From contig CP154954.1 in the NCBI GenBank assembly GCA_039621445.1, positions 18,276,642 through 18,340,641 on the forward strand: a DNA stretch of 64,000 nucleotides, in the 5' to 3' direction. The DNA is from Euglena gracilis. Taxonomy: Eukaryota. The first letter of the stretch is position 1, and each line of letters begins with the position of its first letter. The notes under the pieces were generated by a model. It ran no database searches, was not told the origin of the DNA, and worked only from the letters and a program-made list of their open reading frames with translations. The translations under genes were made by a program, and so were the position numbers. Positions 1,787 to 62,813 of this stretch are shown here, in pieces.

Positions 1787-4700
1787 CCGGCTGGACAAAA
1801 TCAGAGCTTCGAAACAATAACAACAACAACAACAACAACAATTTGGGCTGGGCCGGGGGGGGGGGGACTTGCAGGAAACCACTCACCCCAAAATTTCCTC
1901 ATGACACACCCAAAAGGCTCCCCGGCAGGCAGATAAATGCTACGCCTGTATTACCATATCTCATCATATCACCATATCTCATCCCCAAGTCCATTCAATA
2001 TCCGGAGCATACAATTGCTTACCGACCCCCCGGGGGGGGGGGAGGGGGGTCACTCCACTTTTTTTAAAAACCAGTCAGTCACTCATTTTCAAAAAACCAG
2101 CCAGTCACTACCCCCCCGGGGGGGGGGTCGGCCACTCAGAAAAACGGCCACTTTCCAGTCACTTTAGGTCATTTTAGGCCCAAAAAATTTTTCCGGCGCC
2201 TTCGGCGCCAGGGTTACTCAAGCCACTTTTGCCCACTCCTGGCCGACCCCCCCCCCCCTGGGGGGGAGGGGGTCCGGGCCAAAAACCAGTCAGTCACTCT
2301 GAAAAAAACCAGTCACCCATCCCCCCCGGGGGGGGGGGGGTCGGTCAGTGCTTAAGCAATTGCCTGATCCGGAGCAGGCTGAATTCGACCAACCCCAGGG
2401 CAAGGGGGGTCTCGGGTGCCCCGGAGTGCCTGGGCAGGCAAGAACTACCCCCCCCCCCCCACCCGCCTGGAGGGCCCACCCGGTCGCAGGTCAAAAGGAG
2501 CGAAAAATGGCTTTTCTTATCTTCCGGCGCCTTGGGCACCGAAATGCAAGGCACTTTTGGCCATGTCCCCCATGGGGGGGGGGTGTCGGATCTGGTTATC
2601 TTGGAGTGCCTGCCCGGGGGGGGGGGGTTCGGCATCAGCTTAAAATTCAGCCTAATGGATAATAAAAATCTTTATAAACGCACGCGTTTTTGTGACTTTC
2701 CTGAGTAATGTCGACAATAAACCCAAAGACGGAGTATTCTGCACCTGCAATATGTGGTAAAAGCATCACTACCGCCGTGAAAAACACCCTAAACCCACAA
2801 TCGTACTTGCTTCGCAAAAGGTTGCAAAAAGGCAAAAAAAAAAACGCGATCAATTGTGAAACAAAATATGGGATTGTCTTTATTATGCCTATGTATTTTG
2901 AATATTTGAATCTTGGAAAAACACAAAAAGGGGTTTTTAGATGTTCAAAAAATGTTCATTTGTCGTTGGGATGAACAACTGCTGACAATTTTGTGCCGTC
3001 CAATTTTTAATCCCCCCGACGATGGCAAAAAAGACAACCTTCCTATGATCACATGAATTGGAGGTGACAAGCAGGCACCCATGGTCACTTCCCATTTTGG
3101 TGCTCTGGTCGGCCCTGGTCGGCCCTGGTCGGCCCTGGTCGGCCTTGGTCGGCCCTGGCCATAGGTGGGGGTATCCTTCACAGAAAAAATGTGAAGGGAT
3201 GCAATGATTTTCTGAATTGTCTCGCCAAGATCAAAAGAAAGTGACCCATAAAACCACCATTGGCTCCCCAAAAGCAACCAAAATGACCTAAAATGGTTTG
3301 AAATAACCAAAAATTACCCAAAAACGCCAACAAAATCCACAAAAGATTGTGAAAAATGACCCAAAATTACCAAAAGGGCGCAAAATGGCCAAAATGCCAT
3401 AAAAATGCTCAGATTGACCCAAATTAGCCAATATTTGCCAAATCAGTGACAAATAGCCCCCAAATTAGCAAAAAACTGGTCCATAATGGCCAAAATGGGT
3501 GTAAAACTGGAGATTTGTGAGAAAATTATACAAAAATTGGTTTAGTTCTTCAAAATATACAAAAAAAATGCCAGCATCACCCAGCATCGCCCAACAACAC
3601 CCTGCATCGCCCAGCATCGCTCAGCATCGGAACCCTATGGTCTCCAAAAATCCAGCATCACCCAGCATCGCCCAGCATCGCCCTGCATCGCCCAGCATCA
3701 TCAGAGGTGCTTGTTCCAGAGGGAAAGCTGCCGAAATCCTTCATCCATTCCCCTTCGGTCGGCCACCCACATGCAAGTCGGCCCTGGTCGGCCCTGGTCG
3801 GCCCTGGTCGGAACCCCCACCTACGGGGGTCCTGAAAATCATAGTCGGCCCTGGTCGGCCCTGGTCAGCCCTGGTCGGCCGTGGTCGGCCGTAGGTGCCT
3901 GGTGACAAGTTGGCTGGTAAGAGGGAAACAACAATCTTGAAGGCTACAATTGCATTGCAATTGTGTAAGAGGGGTGACAATCTGTCCGGAGATAAGAATT
4001 ACCTGGGGTGAGTAAGCATCCCTATGTGTGTGGTAATGCATTGGAAAATTAAAAAAAATCACAAGCTGAACACTGAAAAAATACTTGAAACGCCTTTCCT
4101 CATAATTTCATACAAATAAGCCATACAAAATTGCACAAAAGGACAAAACCTTCAGCCCTTGATTTTCATCGAACGTAGCGTACTTCTGCAACGTCTTCGT
4201 TTTGAAGACCTGTGAACAGGCTGAATTCGCCCCGCCGTGGGGGGGGACAGAGTGCTCTGGAGTTCTTGCAGGCAGGCAGCCCCCCCCCCCAGAAAGTCGG
4301 TGCCTGCCAGGTCGTGGGCCGGGGGCGCAGGGGTGCCTTGGCCAACTGCCGAGGCACTGGCCACTGGCCATGTGCCCAACCCCCCCCCCCCCTGCTGGTT
4401 GGATCTGGGTGCCTTGGAGTGCCTGCGAGACACTCCCGGGGGCAGGGTCGGCCGCGGCTTGTATGGGAATCTTGGAGGAGGGGGGACCCCCTTTCAAAAC
4501 TGGGGGGGGGTGAGGGGACCCCCCTCCTACCTCCAGTTTTCGGTCGCCGGAACTTCTCGCCGTTGAATGCAAGGTTTCATAGCGAGCCCCAAGAGGATTT
4601 TAAAATACATACCCGGCGCGAAGCGCCGGAAGATTCACACCCGGCGCGAAGCGCCGGAAGATTCTTTTTGTCCCTGCAGAGGAGGAGGGGGGTGGGGGGA

Positions 4701-7700
4701 CCCCCCTTCCGAAACTGGGGGGGGGTGACCCCCCCTACCACCTACCTCATGTTTGCGGAGGTTCCCATACAACCCTGGGGTCGGCCTCGGCTCAAAATCC
4801 AGCCTGCCTGTGACTGGTCCACGTCGCAATTGTTGGCAAGGTCGTCGTTTCGGACCTCGAGGACCTCCCACTTCACGAAATAGAAGGACGTGCTGGACAG
4901 AAGCGAGCAGCGGTAAACGTCAATGGTGCAACAGGAGTGATACCCACCCCCTCCCCTGGCTGCGGTGAAATCCAGACACCCGAGCTTATAACTGTGTGTC
5001 CTTCAGACTGAATATGCTTGAACTACATCAACAAGCTTTTGCAATAAAAGACATTAATTTGGGATCGGGCACTCTACGTCGAAAGCAACAAAATGTGTTG
5101 CTTTGCCACTGAATTCTTTCAAATTAAAATAAACCAAATATAAATCCAAATATTCAAAACTTCAGAATTGAAATGTTTCCCATGGCAATCTTAACACATT
5201 TGGGGATTTTCAAAAACCAGTCCTCCCTGCCTCCAATGTCAATTTAGCTACCGTTGAAAATGACATTGAAAAAATGCGAAATTTAATTGAATTTTTCACT
5301 GACTGCATTATGCATCCATGAAAGTTTTCTTGTTTTCATTCTGCTTTGAATAGCTGACAGCCGCCGTGGAAAGGCCATTAAAAGTAGGGGGATAGGTGCA
5401 GGTCTTGGCGATTTGGCCTAAAACGAGGCCCGAATTAGGCCAAACTTTGGAACCTTTGAAACCAATGCACTGCCCAAATTACTAAAACCCTTCGCACTAT
5501 TGCAAAAAAAATAGAATTAAGCAAAAACTGAAAAAAAAACTTCTCCAAATTCGCATTCAGGCGCGTTAAAAGCGCACTCCTCTGTGCTGCAGAAAAAATG
5601 GAAAACTTTTGTTGTGTCAAATTCTTGCCTGAAATGATTTTTGGATACCTGCCCCGGGAAACTACCTCCAGACAAATCAGCACAAAACTGCAAATAGCTA
5701 CGAAATTTCCCAAATTACACATTAAAACAAAAGGGACCCGGGGGTGTGGGATTCTGGGCCAGAAAAAAAGGCTGCTGGCTGGCTGGACCTTTTTGGGGCT
5801 GGCTGAAAAGATGACCAGTAGTCACAAAAAGCGTCCTCCTTCAAAATAGAAAAATCGTCCTTTGGTTGGTTGAACACAGGGAGAAGGTGGGGGCTTGCTG
5901 GCGTCGTCAGATGCCAAACTTCCCAACATGACAAGTTGGAGAATTACAAGTCAAATTCTGGGATCCAACATTGCACACCGTAAACTGCTATCAAGATTCA
6001 AAAATGATTGTTCTTCTGTCTGGCAAAAAAAATGTGGCGAAAAAGCCGTAATTTTTCCAGACAAACAACCCAAATTTCGACAACCTGTTGTTTTGTCTAT
6101 ACAGCTACCAACTGCACGCCCCAAAATTCGCTGAGGTGGGTTGGCCTCCAGGCCAGCATTCAAATTAAACAATTGTCGCAAAGACAATTTCTAATTTTTT
6201 TTTTTACAATTCGGTGTGGACTTTTCACTGTGGCACACGTGCTGAAACACTCGTTGAGGACGCGGTGCTGCTCCTCGATGACGGCGGGGTCGAACACCTG
6301 CTGGCTGGTCAGCAGCACAACGCAGCCAGGGCCGTACAGGGAGTCCAGGCGATGGGGGGGGGGAAGGCAGGGCCTGTCATAAGGGCGGGCAAGGTGGGGG
6401 GTCGGAACCTCCCTCCGGTCAAGGGGGGTGGGGACCCCCCCCCCCACCTAAACAGTGGTGCGGTCTGGTGACCGATTTTCTGCCTGGCCCACAGCGCTGG
6501 GCTGAACAAAATTACCCCACAGCGGCCAAAATTGACATTTTGGGCACTTTTTTGGGCAAACTTTGGTAAAGAAAAAGCAAGAAATGTTCGGCGCAAAGTG
6601 CAAAAAAGGAAATAAGTGACTTTTGGGGGGGGGTCCCGGGTACCCCCCTCTCCCCGAGGTCGGGCCGGTATCCCCCTTGGAAGGTGGGGGGATGGTCTGG
6701 ACCCCGCTGGTCGAGGAGGGAGGGGGGCACTCTCCTTATGTCGAACCCAGGGGGGTCGAACCCCGTTCCCCCTTCCCTGCAGGTGGGGGGGGGACCCCTA
6801 CCCACCACCTCCGGGGTTTCCGGGTTCTCCTTCGGCCCTGCGCGTAGCGGACGGGCAGGATGAGGGTGTGGGGCCCGTCGGTGGGGAAGGTGGGCCACCC
6901 GTGGGAGTTGGGGACGTCCTCCTGCGGTGGAGGCGTTATGGAGAGGCAACCGTTCTTTTTTAAAAAAAAGCCGCACACTGCGAATGGGAAGACCTCTGTG
7001 GAAAAAAAATAAAGCCAAAACGTTCTTCTGCTGGCGTCATTGCTGGAAGGTGCGGCCCAAACATTTCCCCCGATGCCAAACAATCGCCCTATGTCTGTGT
7101 GATGTCAAAAGGTACATTTTTTGGAGGTTTCTTCATTTGTTCTCTCTGAAACCTCCATCCATCAGAGGACAAAAACGTTGTCCAACGATCACATCCCCTT
7201 ATGCGGGGACTGGAAAGCTATGCGAGCTGGGCATAGGCAGATTAGAGGGAAATGGGCCCGTTCTCGCATCCCCCGGTTGCCCAATCCTCCCGAAAATGCC
7301 CCTTGCAGTTGAACTCCCTCACTCATGGTGTGTGAACCATTTCTGATAAAAGGCAACACTTTAAGACACAATGAATCATTTGAACAATGGATTATTGAAT
7401 GAATGATTTCCGGCCCCGGCCTCCCTGTAACCTGCCAGGGATAAAATACATTTGAGAGCTACACCCTTTTACACACAGCTACACACCGAAAATGGGATGT
7501 ACCCACCAGCCCCTACCCCCACCCCCCTGGTGGTCCATTGGGACCCACCACCCTCCCCCTCCCCCTCCCCCCCGGGAGGGGGTCCAAGACAAAAAAACCC
7601 CCTGCTTGACAAGAAATTCCCATGGTCTTTGGTGCTGCCTAATCTGTCTCTACTGGAAGTTTGGGTGCCGAAAAAATCGTCTGTCAGAAACTGTTTTCCA

Positions 7701-10700
7701 GAGGTGGGCGTTGGTGGAGTTTGAGAAGCCTGCGCTTCTCAAACTCTTTACAGTTTACAGGTAAGGTGTTTACAGGTAAGTTTACAGGACAGTTTACAGG
7801 TAAGGTGACCTGTAAACTGTCACCTTACAGGTCGGCTGGTACCTCATCCCATTGGGGGCCCATGATTCCATCAACAATAGAATTATGGGTATGGGCGTCA
7901 CATGGGGTTTTTCTGGAACTTGGCTGGGCACTCGGGGAGGCACTGGCGTCGTGCTCCCCCCATTTGTTTCCACACGGCGCACAGCCACACACGTCTGCCA
8001 CACCACCCGCAGCCCGGCGCGGCCCACACCAGCAGGCGGAACCGGGACCGGGACTCGCGGCAGCGGGGGAGGCGGGGGAGGTCCATCCCCGCCGGCGCCG
8101 CGGCCAGGGACTTGTTTAAAGATCAGAGGAGGGGGAGGGGGGTCGCCCCCCCCCCCCCACCCAGATGGACCGGGGTACCCACTTTTTGGGGTCAATTTTG
8201 GAAGTTCCCAAACTTTTTTGGGTGAGAAAAATTTCTTCAAAAATTCTTTCCGCGCGCGAAAAATGGAGGAAAAATTCCCACCCACATGACCCCCCATGGG
8301 AGAGGGGGGGAGGTCTGGCGGATCCACCCATCCTACCCCTCCCCTTCCCCCCTGTGTGCACCGTGGCTGTTTTTTTGGGTAAATTTTATCCCTTCTGGCC
8401 TGGCGCTGTGTTCGCCTCTGGCCCTTTTTGTCTGTGTGCGTGGAGGTGGCCGGAGCCTGGAGGTGGCCCCTCCCCTTCCCCCCCTCCTGGGGGTCCAACC
8501 GTTAAAAGAATCCCTGGGCGTGGCCCCCAGGAAGAGGAGGGGGAGGAGGAGGAGGACGAGATGCGAGGGAAGCATCGAAGCACGGGGCTGCTTCACGCCA
8601 TTCGTCTGGACGCGGGGGTGCAAGGTGGCAGCGGAACCCATTTCCCGGGTGCTGAACAGACCTGTCCAGGTTGGGCGTCTGGCGTTGGGCTGGACTTGGG
8701 GTTGGCCCAGAACGAAATTGAGCCTTCGAGGGATCCGAAAGCGGCTGAATGAATCCCTCCCCCATCCCACAAATAAACCAGGGTTTGAATGGTGCTGAGC
8801 TCTTAATGAGATTTGGGATTTACACGCTATTTGCACGCCCCAAATAAACGGCCCGAAATGGGCCAAAATATGGCTGTTTCTTGGGCCGGACAGGGATTTG
8901 AAAAAAATGACCATGCAAGCATATGGAGCGCTCCTGGGGCTTTATTATAGGTCGCGGACATTCATTTTGATTCCCCACCATTTTTGAGAAATTTCGGGAA
9001 CATCGATTTTTGGACCCGAAAATGGCTGAAAACAGCAGAGTCGGAAGCCCACCGCGTTGTTTTGGGCCGAAAATTGGCCATATCTTGGGCTAGGCGGGGA
9101 GTTATATGCACCTCGACAAAGACACCTCACAGGCACATTGGACGGGAAATTGGGTAATAGTGACCTGTTGAGAGCACAACGTTTTGCACAGAAATGGTTC
9201 TCCAAACCAATTACGACAGAAAAGATTATCTGAAAAATGCAAACGCAAAAAAGCCACAAAACTCTGTGAGGGGGGGGGATCTGCCCCCCCCCTTTTTGAA
9301 AAATTGGCCAAAACACATGACAAAGTTTTCTTCCCTCCGGCAGCCTTTTTGTTGTATGTTCTGGCCATTTTCAAAAAAAAATTGCAAAAAACATATTTTT
9401 TTGGGCCTTCACAGGGGGAGGGTTTGCGAAAGAATCCCACCTGGAAAAAACCTCAAAACCACATTGTTTCATCATTTTGGCTGTGTCAGAAAAACATTCA
9501 GCATTTTATGCAGGAAATTTTGGATGACCCCTCGCCCCCTGGTAGGACCCAGCGCAGGGTATTAAATGAGCAGGGGGGGGGTTGGTCTGGATGCCCCCCG
9601 GGGGGGGGGGGGGCTCGTCGGACCTCCCGCCTGTTTTCCGTAAAAAAAAAAGTGCACACCAACCTTCTGGTGTGTGTGTGTGTATCTGTGTGTGTGTGTG
9701 TGTGTGTGTGTGCCCGGGGGGGGGGGGGAAGGGTTGTAAAAAGAAAGTTCACCCACTCCCCCACTCCAGTAGGTCCCTCCAAAAATTCTGCACCTTTTCA
9801 CCTGAATTTTTGTCCTGATCCCCCCACCGCCGGGTGCGCTGCCTGAGAACAGTTCCTGAAAGGCCATTTATGCCCTGCCTACCCCTGGCTGTAAAAGTTC
9901 TTTTAATTCCACAATTCCAAAATTTGATCCTTTACCCCCTGGGAAATGGTTGGGGGGTTGCCCCGACCCCACTTGGGGTGCAGCTCCACCATTTAGCCAC
10001 ATTCTCAGACCGACGGCCCCAAACCAGGCCCCGCTGCCGGAGCTACTGGAGGTCAACACCGCCCAGCCTTTCCTTGGCCGGTGGCGCTTCGTCAACGTCT
10101 CAAAGGCAGTGGACTGGGATCCGGAAGAGGCGGCTTAGATTACAATTAAAATTCACCAAAACTTAGGCCTGAATCCTATTTCAACTCACGCAGCATCATA
10201 ACCCCCCCCCAAAAGCAGGTGGTTTTTCGGGATATCCCCTCCAGACCCGAGAACCAGAACCTGTCATGCTTCCAAAGAAAAGTGTCATGCTAGTGGGCCA
10301 TCACGGGGAGGCACTACATGAGGCTTCCATATAATATTGATTGGGAAATGGTTCAACCAGAATTAATTATTATGAAATACCCCCAGGACTGGTGTCAAAC
10401 CCAGCAACGTATTCTTGGCTTTTGACTCAGGTAGAAAATCAAGAGAGAACTTCCCAAATATTGAAAGAACTGAGAAAAAAAGAGTTTGAGAGTGCAAACA
10501 AAGGGAGGGTTGAAGCAAAAAATTGAACAAGATGATTATGTTTTGATGCACAGCAAAATATGGCCAAATAAATCATGGCCAAAGCTTCCCCTCTTATGGC
10601 AAGACGCTTTCCGAGTTCTCAAATTGAGAACACTAGAGTGTGGGGCTGGCATCCAGGGGTTTTCTTAAGGACCGGGGGTCCCGAGGGCTGGATGGAAAAA

Positions 10701-12573: not shown

Positions 12574-14865
12574 TCTTCCTCCAATCACCGCTGGTTCCCT
12601 GACCGAGGGGGTGGTGGTGGCCACGGTGCAAAAAAACTGGTCCTCCACGGTTCTGTTCGGGAGGGCGGTTCCTACATGTGATTCTGCAACTTCTTTCTTA
12701 CGGTTTTCTTAAGGACCCTGGGGGGGTCCTGTGGCCAGCTGGAAAGCTGGACCCCCCCCCCCCCGGGTCCGGCTGGCTGGCAGCTGGACCTGGCAGGGAC
12801 CCGAAAACAGGCAAAACAGCACAAATCCAGCTGGGTTGGAATCTTTTGACCAAAATTAGGAGGTAAAAAGGAAACGAAGGACCCCTCCAAAATGCCATTT
12901 TCCGGCCATTTTACCTCTTTTCAAAAAAATTTCTTTATCTCGGCGTATCCCGGCTAGCGCAGCCCGGCTGGGAGGTGTTGGCGATTACCAATCTGCCAGA
13001 AATTCTGGTTGCTAGAATAGAATTAAAAAAGATGGTCAAAATAGTCTTCCGGGTGTCTTTTTTGAACTTTTCCATTGTTTCCCGTCATCGGACTGTGTAT
13101 GCATTCTGGATCAAATCTTTCCAAATGATGTGCACCCACGCCCAGTGTTCAACCCCGACAAATCCCCACGAAACCTGACACAGCAAAATAAAAAAAATCA
13201 AAATTTTCCCCGGATGCTGTCATGTCCAAAAGATCTGTCACCCAGAAGACCCCTTGGACCATGCGACTTATAAAATGACCGTTTCCTCATGTTGTTTACC
13301 TCTCATATGCCCAATGCGCGCATACTGACATGCAGTGTCAGCAGCCTTTTGTATTTGTGTTCTCAACTCCTCGCCCCGAAAATTGTCATGCCTGGGAACC
13401 AGGGAGTAGGGGCCAAAATATGGGAATCAACCCCAAAACTGTCTAAGGCACTTTTGTGAAAGATGCAATGGTGCCATAATACTGTGGACCAGGCGGCAAT
13501 GGTGCCATGGGACCGGATACAGGGTACGGCCTAGTTTACGGCTACGGCCAGGACGTGGACAGTGCTATGTGAAAGCTTAGGCCAAATGGCGAAGCCAGGA
13601 ACCTCGCGATCTCTCAGAGAGCTGAGTTAAGACATCTGGTTTCCTAATTTCCCCTTAAAGAGTTTGGTTGCTTTCGTTAGTAATTGCATGAGTCTCCCAT
13701 CCAAAAGCCAACAGCATTTTCCAGCCTCGAACTTCCAAAAAAGTTTAATGATGTCTAACCGCCCAAAGGGCAATATTGATGGCAGCAGTCCCTATCAAGC
13801 TACCCCAATTTTCCAATTCCCACAGTGAGATGGGATGCCTGCCCTCCCAGCATCCACCCTCCCAGCATCAAAGCCATTTTACGGCACAATTCGACCCCGG
13901 GCTCCGGACCCCCCAAATCTCCCCGGGGTTGGTCAAACTCAGCCTGCCAAAACTGCTCATCCCCACATAGCCAAAGACAAACGATTCGCTTGAGGATTCT
14001 GTTGATTCTGTTCCGGGGTTCCGGCGCGGAGTGCATCGGCCGAGTGTGACCCCGCCCCCCCCCCCGGGTCGGACCTGAGTGCGTTCGAGTGCCTTCCCAG
14101 GCAGGCAAACCCCCGTCGGGTCAGTTCACCTTAAGCTTTGCCTGCTTTATGGGAAACTGAGAAAGTGGAGAAAATAACAGCAATCGTTTTGAGGCAGAGC
14201 CTCACCTCCCACAAGAGAGCACGGGCACGGCGAAAGAAGTCCGGCGGTGAATGAAGCGGTGCGGCTGGAAGCAATGTGTTGGAGGCGGAGAAGAAAAGCA
14301 TGTGGACCAGGTGCACCACGACCCCAGCCTCCAAACGCCAAAACCATTGAAGAGGAGGGGACAACGCCGGAGCAGGCTTGTGCTTACCGGGGTGCTATAG
14401 GGTGCCTCCCCCGGGGGGGGGGTCCGTGGGAGGACCCAGAAAATTTTCATTGAAAATGGCCTTTTTCCCGTTACCGCAAGCATATTTGCGCTTTAGAGCT
14501 TTAGAGTGCTTTAGATTTCCGCCAACACTGTTCGTCAAGCAGTTGCGGTTCCATATCTCCTACGCCAAAACCACCACCCCAAAAACCCTCACAACTACAA
14601 TCACAACTACAATTGCAGAAGTGCAAAAGCAGTGGCGATTTGCACATCAGTTGTGAGGTCTTTGAGTTATCACTCTCTGCCGAGGATGAAAACAGAGTGC
14701 ACAATGAACACAGCGCCTTGCAATCCTTCATAGACAACGAACAGACTGTGCACCGTGACAGCGTCAACGGGGATGGAGTGCAAATGGGGCAGAGTACTCA
14801 CGGCCTTTTATGTGTTTTGTGCATTGCGTTGTGTGTGTGTAGCTGTGTGTGTTTGCGCGAGCGTG

Positions 14866-14924: not shown

Positions 14925-16449
14925 CGCGCACGAGGAGCGGCGGATTCATTCGGATGTGCCCACCAGTGGAAAGCCATTCACAAAACCACATTATGTACGA
15001 GGCGGCATTGCTCCGAACGACTCTTGAAGAAAGCCTAAAGCAGTCCTAAACGGCTGTCTCCAAGCCACTACCCCCACAGCACGTGCTCCCAGCATGGGCT
15101 GCCTGGCCAGTGCTTTGAGCTGGGCTTGGATTGGCATACGGGAGGGCTTGGGATTCAGAATTGGAAAATGTTTGATCCTGTTGCTGGACGAAGGCGGGGG
15201 AGCTTCGCCTATTTTTTTTGCCGATTTTCGGTGCACTGGAAGTTTTATCTGGCCCCCCAAAGTGGTTCCCCCTCCCCCTCCCCCCTCCTCGCTGGGAGGC
15301 AAGGGCCACTCCCTGTTGTGGGGGGGGGGGCTTGATCGTAAAAAAAAAAAGGCAGCTATGCCCCATTGCACTGTGCGAAACCGGTGGGGTGACCCACTGA
15401 GCCGGACCCCCTAACTCCGATGGGGGGGTCCAGTTGACCCACCCATCCAACCCCCACCAAACCCCAGCCTGAACACTGCTGCATGTGGCAGGGCCGAACC
15501 AGTGTGCTCACACGACGATTTGACCAAAAGGAACCCGTCAACTAAGACACGGATTTGTTAGGAAAATAAACATTTGTCCTTAAAATGAGACTTTGCCAAA
15601 AAATGCAGAAATTAAGGATTCAACACATAATATCAGTAGTTTTCCACCCAAAACGGTGTACAAACCTTCCTCTGTCGCACAAGTCAGGGAATACGCAGGA
15701 AAAGACAGGTCCCCATGAAGACAGGATCAGCAAATAGGGGACCAGAGGGCAATTTCCCATATTTGTCTTCTTTCACAAAGAGAAAGAAGACAAATGTGGA
15801 AAAAAAAATTGTTCTTTCAGTTTTTTTTTGTCGAATGGGGGTTTAAAAGAATAGGGACAGGTAAAAAAAAAAGCTTGCAATTCCTTTCAAAGCGCAAATT
15901 GTGCGTTTCCAACAAAAAAATTAGTGAGGCAGGTTATTGGGTAAAAGGGCGGGAGACTGACATGGGAGATCTCATTGGAGACAAAGGAAGATCCTGTGGC
16001 AGAAGATAAACAGAGAGGACACTAACACCAAACGGGTAACGTTTATTACCGGAGACAAATTATTAATTTCTCGACAGATTTGTTTTAATTCAATACAGCC
16101 CACATCAATCTTCAGGATAATATATATAATATATATAATACAATATATATAATATAATATAATTTGATTTCAGAGTACAAATTGAAGATTTGGTGTGAAC
16201 ACCTTGGTATCAAATGTGCAAATAACCCTTGTGGCCAAATTTTACTCTTGGTGGCTTCCTACTGCCGAAAGAACGTTTTCCCCAGCGCTGCAAAGTTAGG
16301 AGGTTGCGATGAATTTTGGATTTTCCCTTGAAGAGTATTTCACTATTGAAGGTGTATTTCTCATTTTTCTTCTTCATCCCATGCACAGGGAGCGGCACAG
16401 CACGAATGGTGCGACACATGGGGTGCCGTCTGTATTGTTTGAATTTCTA

Positions 16450-16481
<32 letters not shown>

Positions 16482-16485
16482 GTGT

Positions 16486-16520
<35 letters not shown>

Positions 16521-17319
16521 GTTTGTGTGCAAATCAAAGTGGGGGAGCTGAGGAGTTCATGTTCATACAGTTCTCGTCACAGACGGATGGTGCCACAGAG
16601 TGTGGTGACGTGCGAGGAGGCAGAGAGGGCATCATGCCAGAGAGTCGACGTGGGGGACTGCCATTGGTTTGATGCAACAACAAACACACCAGACAGCTTT
16701 GTGGAACTTGTTTAGCAGAACACATCGTGCCTTATGCCAGGTGTTGGGTTGCGGGATGCAGGGCAGAGTTGGTTACTGTATATATTTACATATACAGTGA
16801 TACACTGTATACTGTACATGTACAGTGGTGGGCCAGTATATATGCATGTACATGTACACATAGTCACAATATAACATTTACACACAGCCATAAAGTTAAG
16901 GCCCCCCCGGGGGGCCCTTGACCCATACGACCCAGGGGAGGGTCGTATGGTGGGACCCGGGTCCGACCTTTCGGAAAGTTGGGGTTATTGATTGGGATAG
17001 GGTTAGGGTTCCGACCAGCCTCCCGCCGGGCTCCAATTATTGGAAAGTTAGGGAGCAGTTAGGCTGCATTCCGGATGAATTCCGGCCGAATTTAGGCCGA
17101 ATTCGGGCGATTCAAAAAACCTTCCCAAAATGGGACCTAACCTCCGGCCCAACCTGGTCCCTAAAAAGGGCCAATTTTTGGTGGGCCAACCCTAACCCTA
17201 ACCGTATTCCTAAAATGAAGCGCCAACCCTCCCCGGATCCGCCGCCGATGGCCCGGAAACTGCGCACTTCCCCCGCGCTGCGGGACCGAAAAGCCAAAAG
17301 ATCGGGCCCGCATCCCACC

Positions 17320-17852
17320 CATACAATTTTTTACTGACCCGGAAGGACTCTTCGAAAAACCAGTCTGTCACTTTTCCGCGAAACCAGTCAGTCACTACCC
17401 CCCCCCCCTCCCGAGGGGTCGGCCACAGGGGTTTTCTTAAGGACCCGGGGGGGGGGGGTCCAGCCAGCAGCCCATTTGGCTGGCCAACCTGCGGCCGGCG
17501 GCGGGGCTGGACCCAACTTTATTTCACTCGACCCCCGGGGGGGGGGGGCTACCACTCCGAATTTGGGCTGCTGGCTGGATTTGAGCTGCTGGCTGGCTGG
17601 ACCCCCCCCCCCCCCCGGGGGATAGGGTCCCCTCCGGCTTAAGAAAACCCCTGGTCGGCCAATCAGGAAACCGGCTACTTTCCAGCCAGTTTAGTCCATT
17701 TTAAGCCGAAAAAAATTTCTCCCCGGCACCTTCCGGGGTCACTCAAGCCACTTTTCCTCACCCCTGGCAGACGGCCAAAAACCAATCAGTCACTCTGAAG
17801 AACCAGTCAACCTTCGGGGGGGGGGGCAGGCCAGTGCGTAAGCAATTGACTG
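17320..17852. mobile_element. MITE (CATACAATT...AATTGACTG family) carrying a nested MITE
   Basis: Perfect 8-bp TSD ATCCCACC. Confidence 0.85.
17426..17653. mobile_element. Nested MITE, CAGGGGTTTTCTTAAG family
   Basis: Perfect 16-bp TIR and perfect 8-bp TSD GTCGGCCA. Empty site in the host-family copy near 2127. Confidence 0.92.

Positions 17853-20163: not shown

Positions 20164-62813
<42,650 letters not shown>

Follow-up and report, generated by a model that had tools for sequence, protein, structure and literature searches.

We analysed a stretch of 64,000 nucleotides of Euglena gracilis DNA (assembly GCA_039621445.1, contig CP154954.1, forward-strand positions 18,276,642 to 18,340,641), hereafter the window, in which positions are counted from the first letter. 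Near its start, at 4217-4806, a MITE (miniature inverted-repeat transposable element) lies between two pieces of a minus-strand open reading frame, the putative gene B. Farther along, the same strand carries a class III adenylate/guanylate cyclase gene (20167..60212), whose exons were placed with a transcript-derived protein and which served as a yardstick. An earlier note on this DNA had proposed that a complete intron of gene B is one copy of a MITE family that also occurs as ordinary insertions, and that two further introns, 8100-8519 and 20234-20506, continue an age series from recent insertion to decayed intron.

The element at 4217-4806 and its family

By direct reading, the element is 590 bp long; its first letters are CAGGCTGAATT and its last AATCCAGCCTG. 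Its inverted ends begin CAGGCTG and match at 10/12 positions, including an uninterrupted run of 7. A target site duplication (TSD) surrounds it, with CCTGTGAA at 4209..4216 and CCTGTGAC at 4807..4814 on the plus strand, the two copies being identical at 7/8 positions. Read on the gene strand, the left copy splits into TTCAC, the 5-nt 3' spacer, and AGG, with which the following exon starts; the right copy splits into GTCAC, with which the preceding exon closes, and AGG, the 3-nt 5' spacer. We scanned the window for CAG...CTG elements with at least 7/8 in the TSD and at least 9/12 in the terminal inverted repeats (TIR). Five were found, 4217-4806 among them, whereas 20 block shuffles yielded 0-2 elements and the reversed sequence none. 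The TIR and the 7/8 TSD described in the earlier note thus held up. That 4217-4806 is a transposon, that is, a TIR and TSD element of a family with other copies, can be regarded as secure.

The description of this element as a single MITE copy needed amendment. It is indeed a TIR/TSD family member, but a composite one, in which an outer MITE of the CAGGCTGRATT family carries a second element nested at 4461..4773. The whole, read on the minus (gene) strand, is coextensive with the candidate intron's core, which runs from CAG to CTG. Direct reading and a MAFFT alignment showed that the outer part runs up to GGTCGGCCGCGGCT, is interrupted by the inner element, and resumes as GGTCGGCCTCGGCT...CCAGCCTG. 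The inner element has perfect 11-bp inverted ends, TTGTATGGGAA, a motif with no other occurrence in the window. On either side of it stands a copy of GGGTCGGCC(G/T)CGGCT, a duplicated piece of the outer MITE. A near-repeat of the outer MITE, 14-15 bp long, borders it at 4445-4460 and 4776-4790 (GGGTCGGCCGCGGCT and GGGTCGGCCTCGGCT); as this is much longer than 8 bp, either the insertion mechanism or the true borders of the inner element are in doubt.

The terminus CAGGCTGRATT, with at most one mismatch, occurred 12 times in the window against 3.15 expected, and 0/100 shuffles reached 12. These occurrences include 2375+/2654-, 4217+/4806-, 13946- and 23623+, while 4/12 belong to another family, in which they form a motif of the interior. 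Terminus search, MAFFT and local alignment defined a family copy of 280 bp at 2375..2654 (TSD 3/8, hand count) and another at 23623..23896 (TSD 1/8, hand count). At 13936..13946 on the minus strand, terminus search and MAFFT found a solitary terminus, CAGGCTGAGTT, alignable over about its last 25 nt only. The relatives that the earlier note had placed at 2375, 13945 (reverse) and 23623 were therefore recovered, the one at 13946 as a lone terminus. So was their position away from exon borders in the case of 23623-23896: this copy is enclosed by cyclase intron 25, which is verified and spans 22880-24256. It stops 359 and 743 nt short of the two intron ends, is flush with no exon border, and is an ordinary nested insertion.

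The family unit measures about 275 bp, and 4217-4806 is a diverged copy of it. In the MAFFT alignment its outer part matched 2375-2654 and 23623-23897 blockwise, with one gap of about 310 bp for the nested insert. Local scores of 4217-4460 were 43 and 47 against the 2375 and 23623 copies, and the score between those two copies was 110; CAG...CTG elements of the window that are unrelated gave 24-28 and shuffles no more than 32. When 60-nt termini were compared (924 comparisons; 95th percentile 20, 99th percentile 31), the two ends of 4217-4806 scored 33 and 28 against the corresponding ends of 2375-2654 (24/30 and 21/30 ungapped). When the element was compared with the window by plain blastn, only short, weak matches came back, and its membership in the family rests on MAFFT and on local alignment scored with controls. 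An insertion so strongly diverged from its relatives, and itself carrying a nested insertion, cannot be called recent, as the earlier note had done. The other copies of the family, 2375-2654 and 23623-23896, have no intact TSD. The only family copy flush with a putative exon in the window is 4217-4806; the family copies are diverged, with no burst of near-identical intron copies.

The candidate intron and the nonconventional splice code

Knock-in experiments in E. gracilis, made with an EgGSL2 exon, have defined the nonconventional splice code as 5'-N3-CDG...CH'G-N5-6|R (Nomura et al. 2025, PMC12501133), and the genome-wide consensus reported for this species is CCAGG at +3..+7 and CCTG at -9..-6 (Gao et al. 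2024, PMC11170887). Fit to this code, together with a terminal helix in the RNA fold, defined a candidate nonconventional intron of 598 nt at 4212..4809 on the minus strand, of the form N3-CAG...CTG-N5 then A. The minus strand reads ...GACCAGTCAC | AGG CAG GCTGG ... CAGC CTG TTCAC | AGGTCTTC. A 3-nt spacer, AGG, precedes a CAG at +4..+6, as the 5' side of the code requires; the complementary CTG is followed by a 5-nt spacer, TTCAC, and then by the exon purine A, as the 3' side requires. Against the CCAGG/CCTG of the consensus, the element has CAGG and CCTG. Joining the flanks on the minus strand gives GAC CAG TCA CAG GTC TTC AAA, that is, D-Q-S-Q-V-F-K. Eight equivalent registers yield this same mRNA, and one of them, 4210-4807, is GC-AG. 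The "3+5 register" with the D-Q-S-Q-V-F-K frame, put forward in the earlier note, thus coincides with a code that was defined experimentally (PMC12501133). Since 3 + 5 = 8, the length of the TSD, the code removes the element and exactly one TSD copy.

In the predicted RNA fold the two ends of the candidate intron were paired, and the terminal helix was present in both the minimum free energy (MFE) and the centroid structures. The MFE was -316 kcal/mol, as compared with -284 +/- 7.8 for shuffles (z = -4.1). Pairing of the ends extended beyond the CAG/CTG motif (7 contiguous, 10/12 positions). We consider it likely, as a prediction from the letters of the locus, that 4217-4806 is part of an intron.

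Coding evidence for the flanks came mainly from the upstream side. The putative upstream exon of gene B (...FYFVKWEVLEVRNDDLANNCDVDQS.., 4810..4921, minus strand) was recognised by its GC content at the three codon positions (GC1/2/3), which over 4814-4921 was.56/.31/.83, close to the.61/.43/.86 of the cyclase coding sequence. In the 37.6 kb of verified introns, 15/12730 stop-free windows of 36 codons reached this signature. The putative downstream exon (..QVFKTKTLQKYATFDENQGLK, 4151..4211, minus strand) is in frame with the upstream one and has a GC3 of 0.70. From there the open frame runs past a possible GT-AG intron on the minus strand (4011-4150, by sequence reading) and an element at 3072-3901, to a stop near 2937.

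The cyclase gene allowed us to ask how verified introns of the same window behave. A tblastn search with EG_transcript_2311 (798 aa), whose name we take to denote the Euglena gracilis transcriptome, placed 29 exons on the minus strand, from 60212 to 20167; the spliced frame was identical at 791/798 positions, contained no stop, and was followed by TGA. A GC3 scan had flagged minus-strand exons with cyclase motifs, and exon 39814-39972 matched 15 EG_transcript_* proteins, the best at 97% identity. These matches make it almost certain that the window is nuclear DNA of E. gracilis; a dinoflagellate or Amoebophrya origin was dropped on account of them, and the spliced-leader motif had 0 matches. 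The gene covers 40 kb, with exons of 37-160 nt and introns of 273-4860 nt. At the code positions, in a register that the borders allow, 18/28 of its introns have CDG and CHG with a purine next, and in 16 of those 18 the middle bases are complementary. Intron 14 (42078..43253, minus strand, placed with the transcript-derived protein) is of the form N3-CAG...CTG-N5 then A, as is the candidate, and has a perfect 8/8 TSD, GATGGAGC. One of its termini is 24/30 identical to the CAGGGGTTTTCT family, which ranked 4 of the 924 comparisons. Over the 18 code-fitting introns, flanking 8-mers agreed at 57/144 positions versus 43.3 for permuted pairs (p = 0.0065). With such verified neighbours in the window, the idea that nonconventional introns originate from MITEs is well supported.

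Intron 20234-20506 proved to be real: it is cyclase intron 28 on the minus strand, its borders were confirmed by the transcript-derived protein, and it fits the code. The CAG...CTG element at 8100..8519 (minus strand, by sequence reading) is a candidate intron which also fits the code, with GCC as N3, GCCGC as N5 and then G. TSD counts of 6/8 (hand count) for 8100-8519 and 5/8 for 20234-20506 agreed with those given earlier. Of the proposed age series, what stood was the shared structure, that is, CAG...CTG, fit to the code and a partial TSD. What did not stand was the kinship: local scores of these two introns against the CAGGCTGRATT family were 24-36, overlapping with unrelated controls, which leaves both outside the family. 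The intron 28 terminus, CAGGGCGTCGCCTAAGGACC, instead resembles the ...CTTAAGGACC termini of other families. For nonconventional introns at large, rather than for this one family, a series of ages is plausible.

Other CAG...CTG elements of the window tell how long the duplication is. Perfect TSDs around such elements numbered 4 at length 8, as compared with 0.0 in controls; there were 0 at lengths 7, 9, 10 and 11, and those of length 5-6 were at chance level. TIR/TSD scanning found a young MITE of a second family at 17426..17653, with CAGGGGTTTTCT as its TIR (12/12) and a perfect 8-bp TSD, and a second copy at 26891..27378, within the verified cyclase intron 22, also with 12/12 inverted ends and a perfect 8-bp TSD; the two are 89.5% identical over 153 bp. 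An element of 1187 bp at 54346-55532, within the verified intron 4, has inverted ends, CAGGGCGGTCC, that agree at 11/12 positions, and its 8-bp duplication, GTTCTTCA, is perfect. Finally, the CAG...CTG scan returned an 830-bp CAGGCACC... element at 3072-3901, rich in GGCCGACCAG repeats, with a perfect 8-bp duplication, GTGACAAG. It is flush with the minus-strand open frame of gene B, 300 bp downstream of the candidate intron.

Insertion, splicing and alternative readings

The explanation that we favour, with a probability of roughly 0.6, is transposon insertion followed by nonconventional splicing of 4217-4806 as an intron. What happened to the DNA is shown by its sequence: a non-autonomous cut-and-paste transposon from a family with CAGGCTGRATT inverted ends inserted into a minus-strand open reading frame of E. 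gracilis nuclear DNA, duplicating 8 bp of target (KTCACAGG on the gene strand), and a second small element later inserted inside the first. At the RNA level, the nonconventional splicing system would clear the insertion from the transcript by reading CAG at +4..+6 paired with CTG at -8..-6 and cutting 3 nt ahead of CAG and 5 nt past CTG, before a purine. The transposon tips themselves would be that CAG and that CTG, and the inverted repeats would supply the pairing. Such a cut removes the element and one TSD copy, and would thereby restore the original D-Q-S-Q-V-F-K frame. Since the 3+5 code equals the 8-bp TSD, an insertion of this kind into a transcribed exon would be an intron from landing onward. 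The GC-AG register in the same flanks may offer conventional splicing as a second route.

A rather unlikely reading, yet one to be weighed with care, is that the MITE sits in DNA outside any expressed gene, either a dead gene copy or a chance frame in a long intron or intergenic stretch, and is a transposon but not an intron. Once the element and a TSD copy are taken out, the flanks of any insertion into an open frame join in frame as a matter of course. Moreover, the window is rich in repeats and has verified introns of up to 4.9 kb, so that most insertions fall in non-exon DNA; the four elements with perfect TSDs, except possibly 3072-3901, all do so. Several results count against our favoured explanation. 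The flanks have no transcript-derived protein and no relative in the collections: the upstream exon had no match among proteins of 91-2000 aa, though that collection includes Euglena transcript proteins, no usable match among 1.84 billion representatives of all lengths, and none in metagenome scans made with an exon word and with the exon reading frame; the neighbouring candidate exon at 6226-6348 likewise had no match in the protein search. The only match to the upstream exon, at E = 7.6e-4, was with a bacterial-type protein of repetitive sequence; it had no aligned stretch and was dismissed as chance. The coding signal also fades downstream of the candidate intron, GC3 dropping from 0.70 (4151-4211) to about 0.36 (3905-4010) and about 0.50 (2940-3066; the last two being hand counts), where the lowest value among cyclase exons is 0.5; the gene model downstream of the candidate intron is therefore uncertain. 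Fifteen false windows in verified introns amount to about one spurious locus per few tens of kb. In the 3+5 register, 3072-3901 would make the next exon start with C, which the published purine rule disfavours. Two figures from the cyclase gene call for caution as well. The two or more equivalent registers counted in 27/28 introns may be an overcount, as borders were set by protein identity and not by cDNA letters. The excess of agreement between flanking 8-mers of the code-fitting introns fell to p = 0.064 without intron 14. Against a location in dead DNA, however, the upstream flank has its GC3-rich periodicity in the right frame and on the right strand, at a level that so few intron windows reach. 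Segments of at least 90 nt flagged by the GC3 scan on the minus strand of the cyclase gene were nearly all true exons. The frame is open across the junction, and the purine rule fits.

Even if an intron is accepted, the ordinary spliceosome might remove it as GC-AG (4210-4807), with the CAG/CTG fit being incidental; on the terms of Milanowski et al. it would then count as "intermediate". The sequence does contain the register CAG|GCAGGC...TTCACAG|G, and an E. gracilis tubA intron with direct CAG repeats and a GC-AG register has been described (PMC3935182). We nevertheless judge this quite improbable. Among the 28 cyclase introns, a conventional reading is needed by 0 and allowed, as GC-AG, by 1 (intron 27). 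The 3' end has no C-rich pyrimidine tract of the kind reported for conventional introns of E. gracilis, and strong pairing of the ends is described as typical of nonconventional ones (both PMC11170887). Still more improbable, to our mind very much so, is that the inverted ends and the flanking repeat arose in place through selection by the splicing system, without transposition. CAG/CTG and the pairing are indeed functionally required (PMC12501133), and most verified introns have weak flank similarity, with a mode of 2-4 of 8. But copies that form no intron, of which one lies inside a verified intron, show the same termini and interior blocks; perfect duplications occur at 8 bp only; and the nested second TIR element indicates that the region accepts insertions.

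Related systems and the origin of nonconventional introns

Introners of Micromonas and Aureococcus, by details reportedly going back to Huff et al. in 2016, resemble the proposed case in that insertion of a DNA transposon makes an intron immediately, the TSD supplies part of the border, and removal is exact. They differ in using GT-AG and the spliceosome, whereas here both cut sites would be set by distance from the transposon tips. In the sense of Gozashti 2022 and Huff 2016, introners come in many near-identical copies, each of which makes a spliceosomal intron. Elements of the hAT superfamily have 8-bp TSDs and CAG-type tips. The MITEs of that superfamily, for instance Ds of maize, share with the window families the 8-bp TSD and short inverted ends beginning CAG; in contrast, the fifth terminal base fits the hAT motif in only some of these families. 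Assignment to hAT is a lead only. Of the Micromonas and Aureococcus introners, the Amoebophrya paper says that they have direct repeats, TIRs that do not vary in length, and splice motifs of the canonical kind (PMC7789003). The introner elements of Amoebophrya themselves are alike in having non-canonical borders, inverted repeats of 8-20 nt that join the ends, and short direct repeats at the border; according to the same text their direct repeats are 3-5 nt and their ends are not family-specific, whereas in the window the duplication measures 8 bp and each family has termini of its own, all of them with CAGG as first letters. Introns made by transposons are on record (Giroux et al. 1994, cited in PMC3935182).

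There is also a close likeness to the nonconventional introns of euglenids, as described for E. gracilis and E. agilis (splice code in PMC12501133), which have CAG at +4..+6 and CTG at -8..-6, spacers of 3 and 5 nt, an exon that starts with a purine, ends that pair, and borders rendered "slidable" by direct repeats. Full-length circular intron RNA has been reported for nonconventional introns of tubA (cited in PMC11282704). What sets the present candidate apart is that its core can be recognised as belonging to a repeat family that also has copies which are not introns, and that the 8-bp duplication at its borders is nearly intact. A MITE origin of these introns was proposed by Milanowski et al. 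2014, at a time when no euglenid transposon was known (PMC3935182), and a 2024 Mob DNA review took it up, describing TIRs with CAG/CTG and "TSD-like" repeats (PMC11282704); in 2025 their origin was still called unclear (PMC12501133). We found no paper linking Euglena to the "hAT superfamily". The main-text passages of the literature yielded no statement of an 8-bp duplication for euglenid nonconventional introns, a point on which figures and supplements may bear, and no report of named MITE families common to introns and non-intron sites in Euglena, again as far as main text goes.

The MITE origin itself is thus already published, and 4217-4806 gives concrete support to this existing hypothesis. 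What the window offers is a set of named CAGG-tipped families, a TSD length equal to the sum of the two code spacers, and copies both inside and outside intron borders. Together these turn the MITE hypothesis into a genome-wide test by counting. A wider proposal, which we put forward tentatively and which may well not hold, is that the geometry of the splice code, with its cuts 3 nt ahead of CAG and 5 nt past CTG, is a footprint left by one class of CAGG-tipped transposons with 8-bp TSDs, possibly hAT-like. The second splicing system would then act as an eraser at the RNA level, new exonic insertions would be born as precise introns, and most nonconventional introns, tens of thousands of them, would be decayed copies whose spacers drifted later. 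Were this true, a bolder corollary would be that the excision machinery recognises transposon ends by descent from, or co-evolution with, the transposase.

Some further features of these introns and elements deserve mention. The 3' spacers of the 18 verified introns (5-6 nt after CTG) are 55% C, and in 7/18 at least four letters are C, often as CCCCC. Neither of the two introns that look youngest has a C-rich 3' spacer (GATGG in intron 14, TTCAC in candidate 4212-4809), and the 3' spacer may be optimised after insertion. Different CAG...CTG families, with termini at 17426, 26891, 54346, 20239 and 42083, have in common a CTTAAGGACC-like subterminal block some 10 nt in from the tip, which may point to descent from one ancestor or to one site at which a transposase binds. 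A Pfam scan of 10 long frames of the window gave no transposase domain and only a sub-threshold cyclase match, and Rfam gave no family at gathering score in the window. Among the cyclase introns there was no whole-intron similarity, shared pieces being nested repeats. A segmental duplication lies at 22880-25113, where intron 25, in its 5' part, matches intron 24 with 85.7% identity over 434 bp; as a peptide is also repeated across exons 24 and 25, an exon plus its intron was duplicated in tandem. At 21500-22100, 30050-30780 and 16440-16700 there are long microsatellites of the types (CA)n, (CATA)n-like and (TG)n, and runs of 8-13 G or C are very numerous inside introns.

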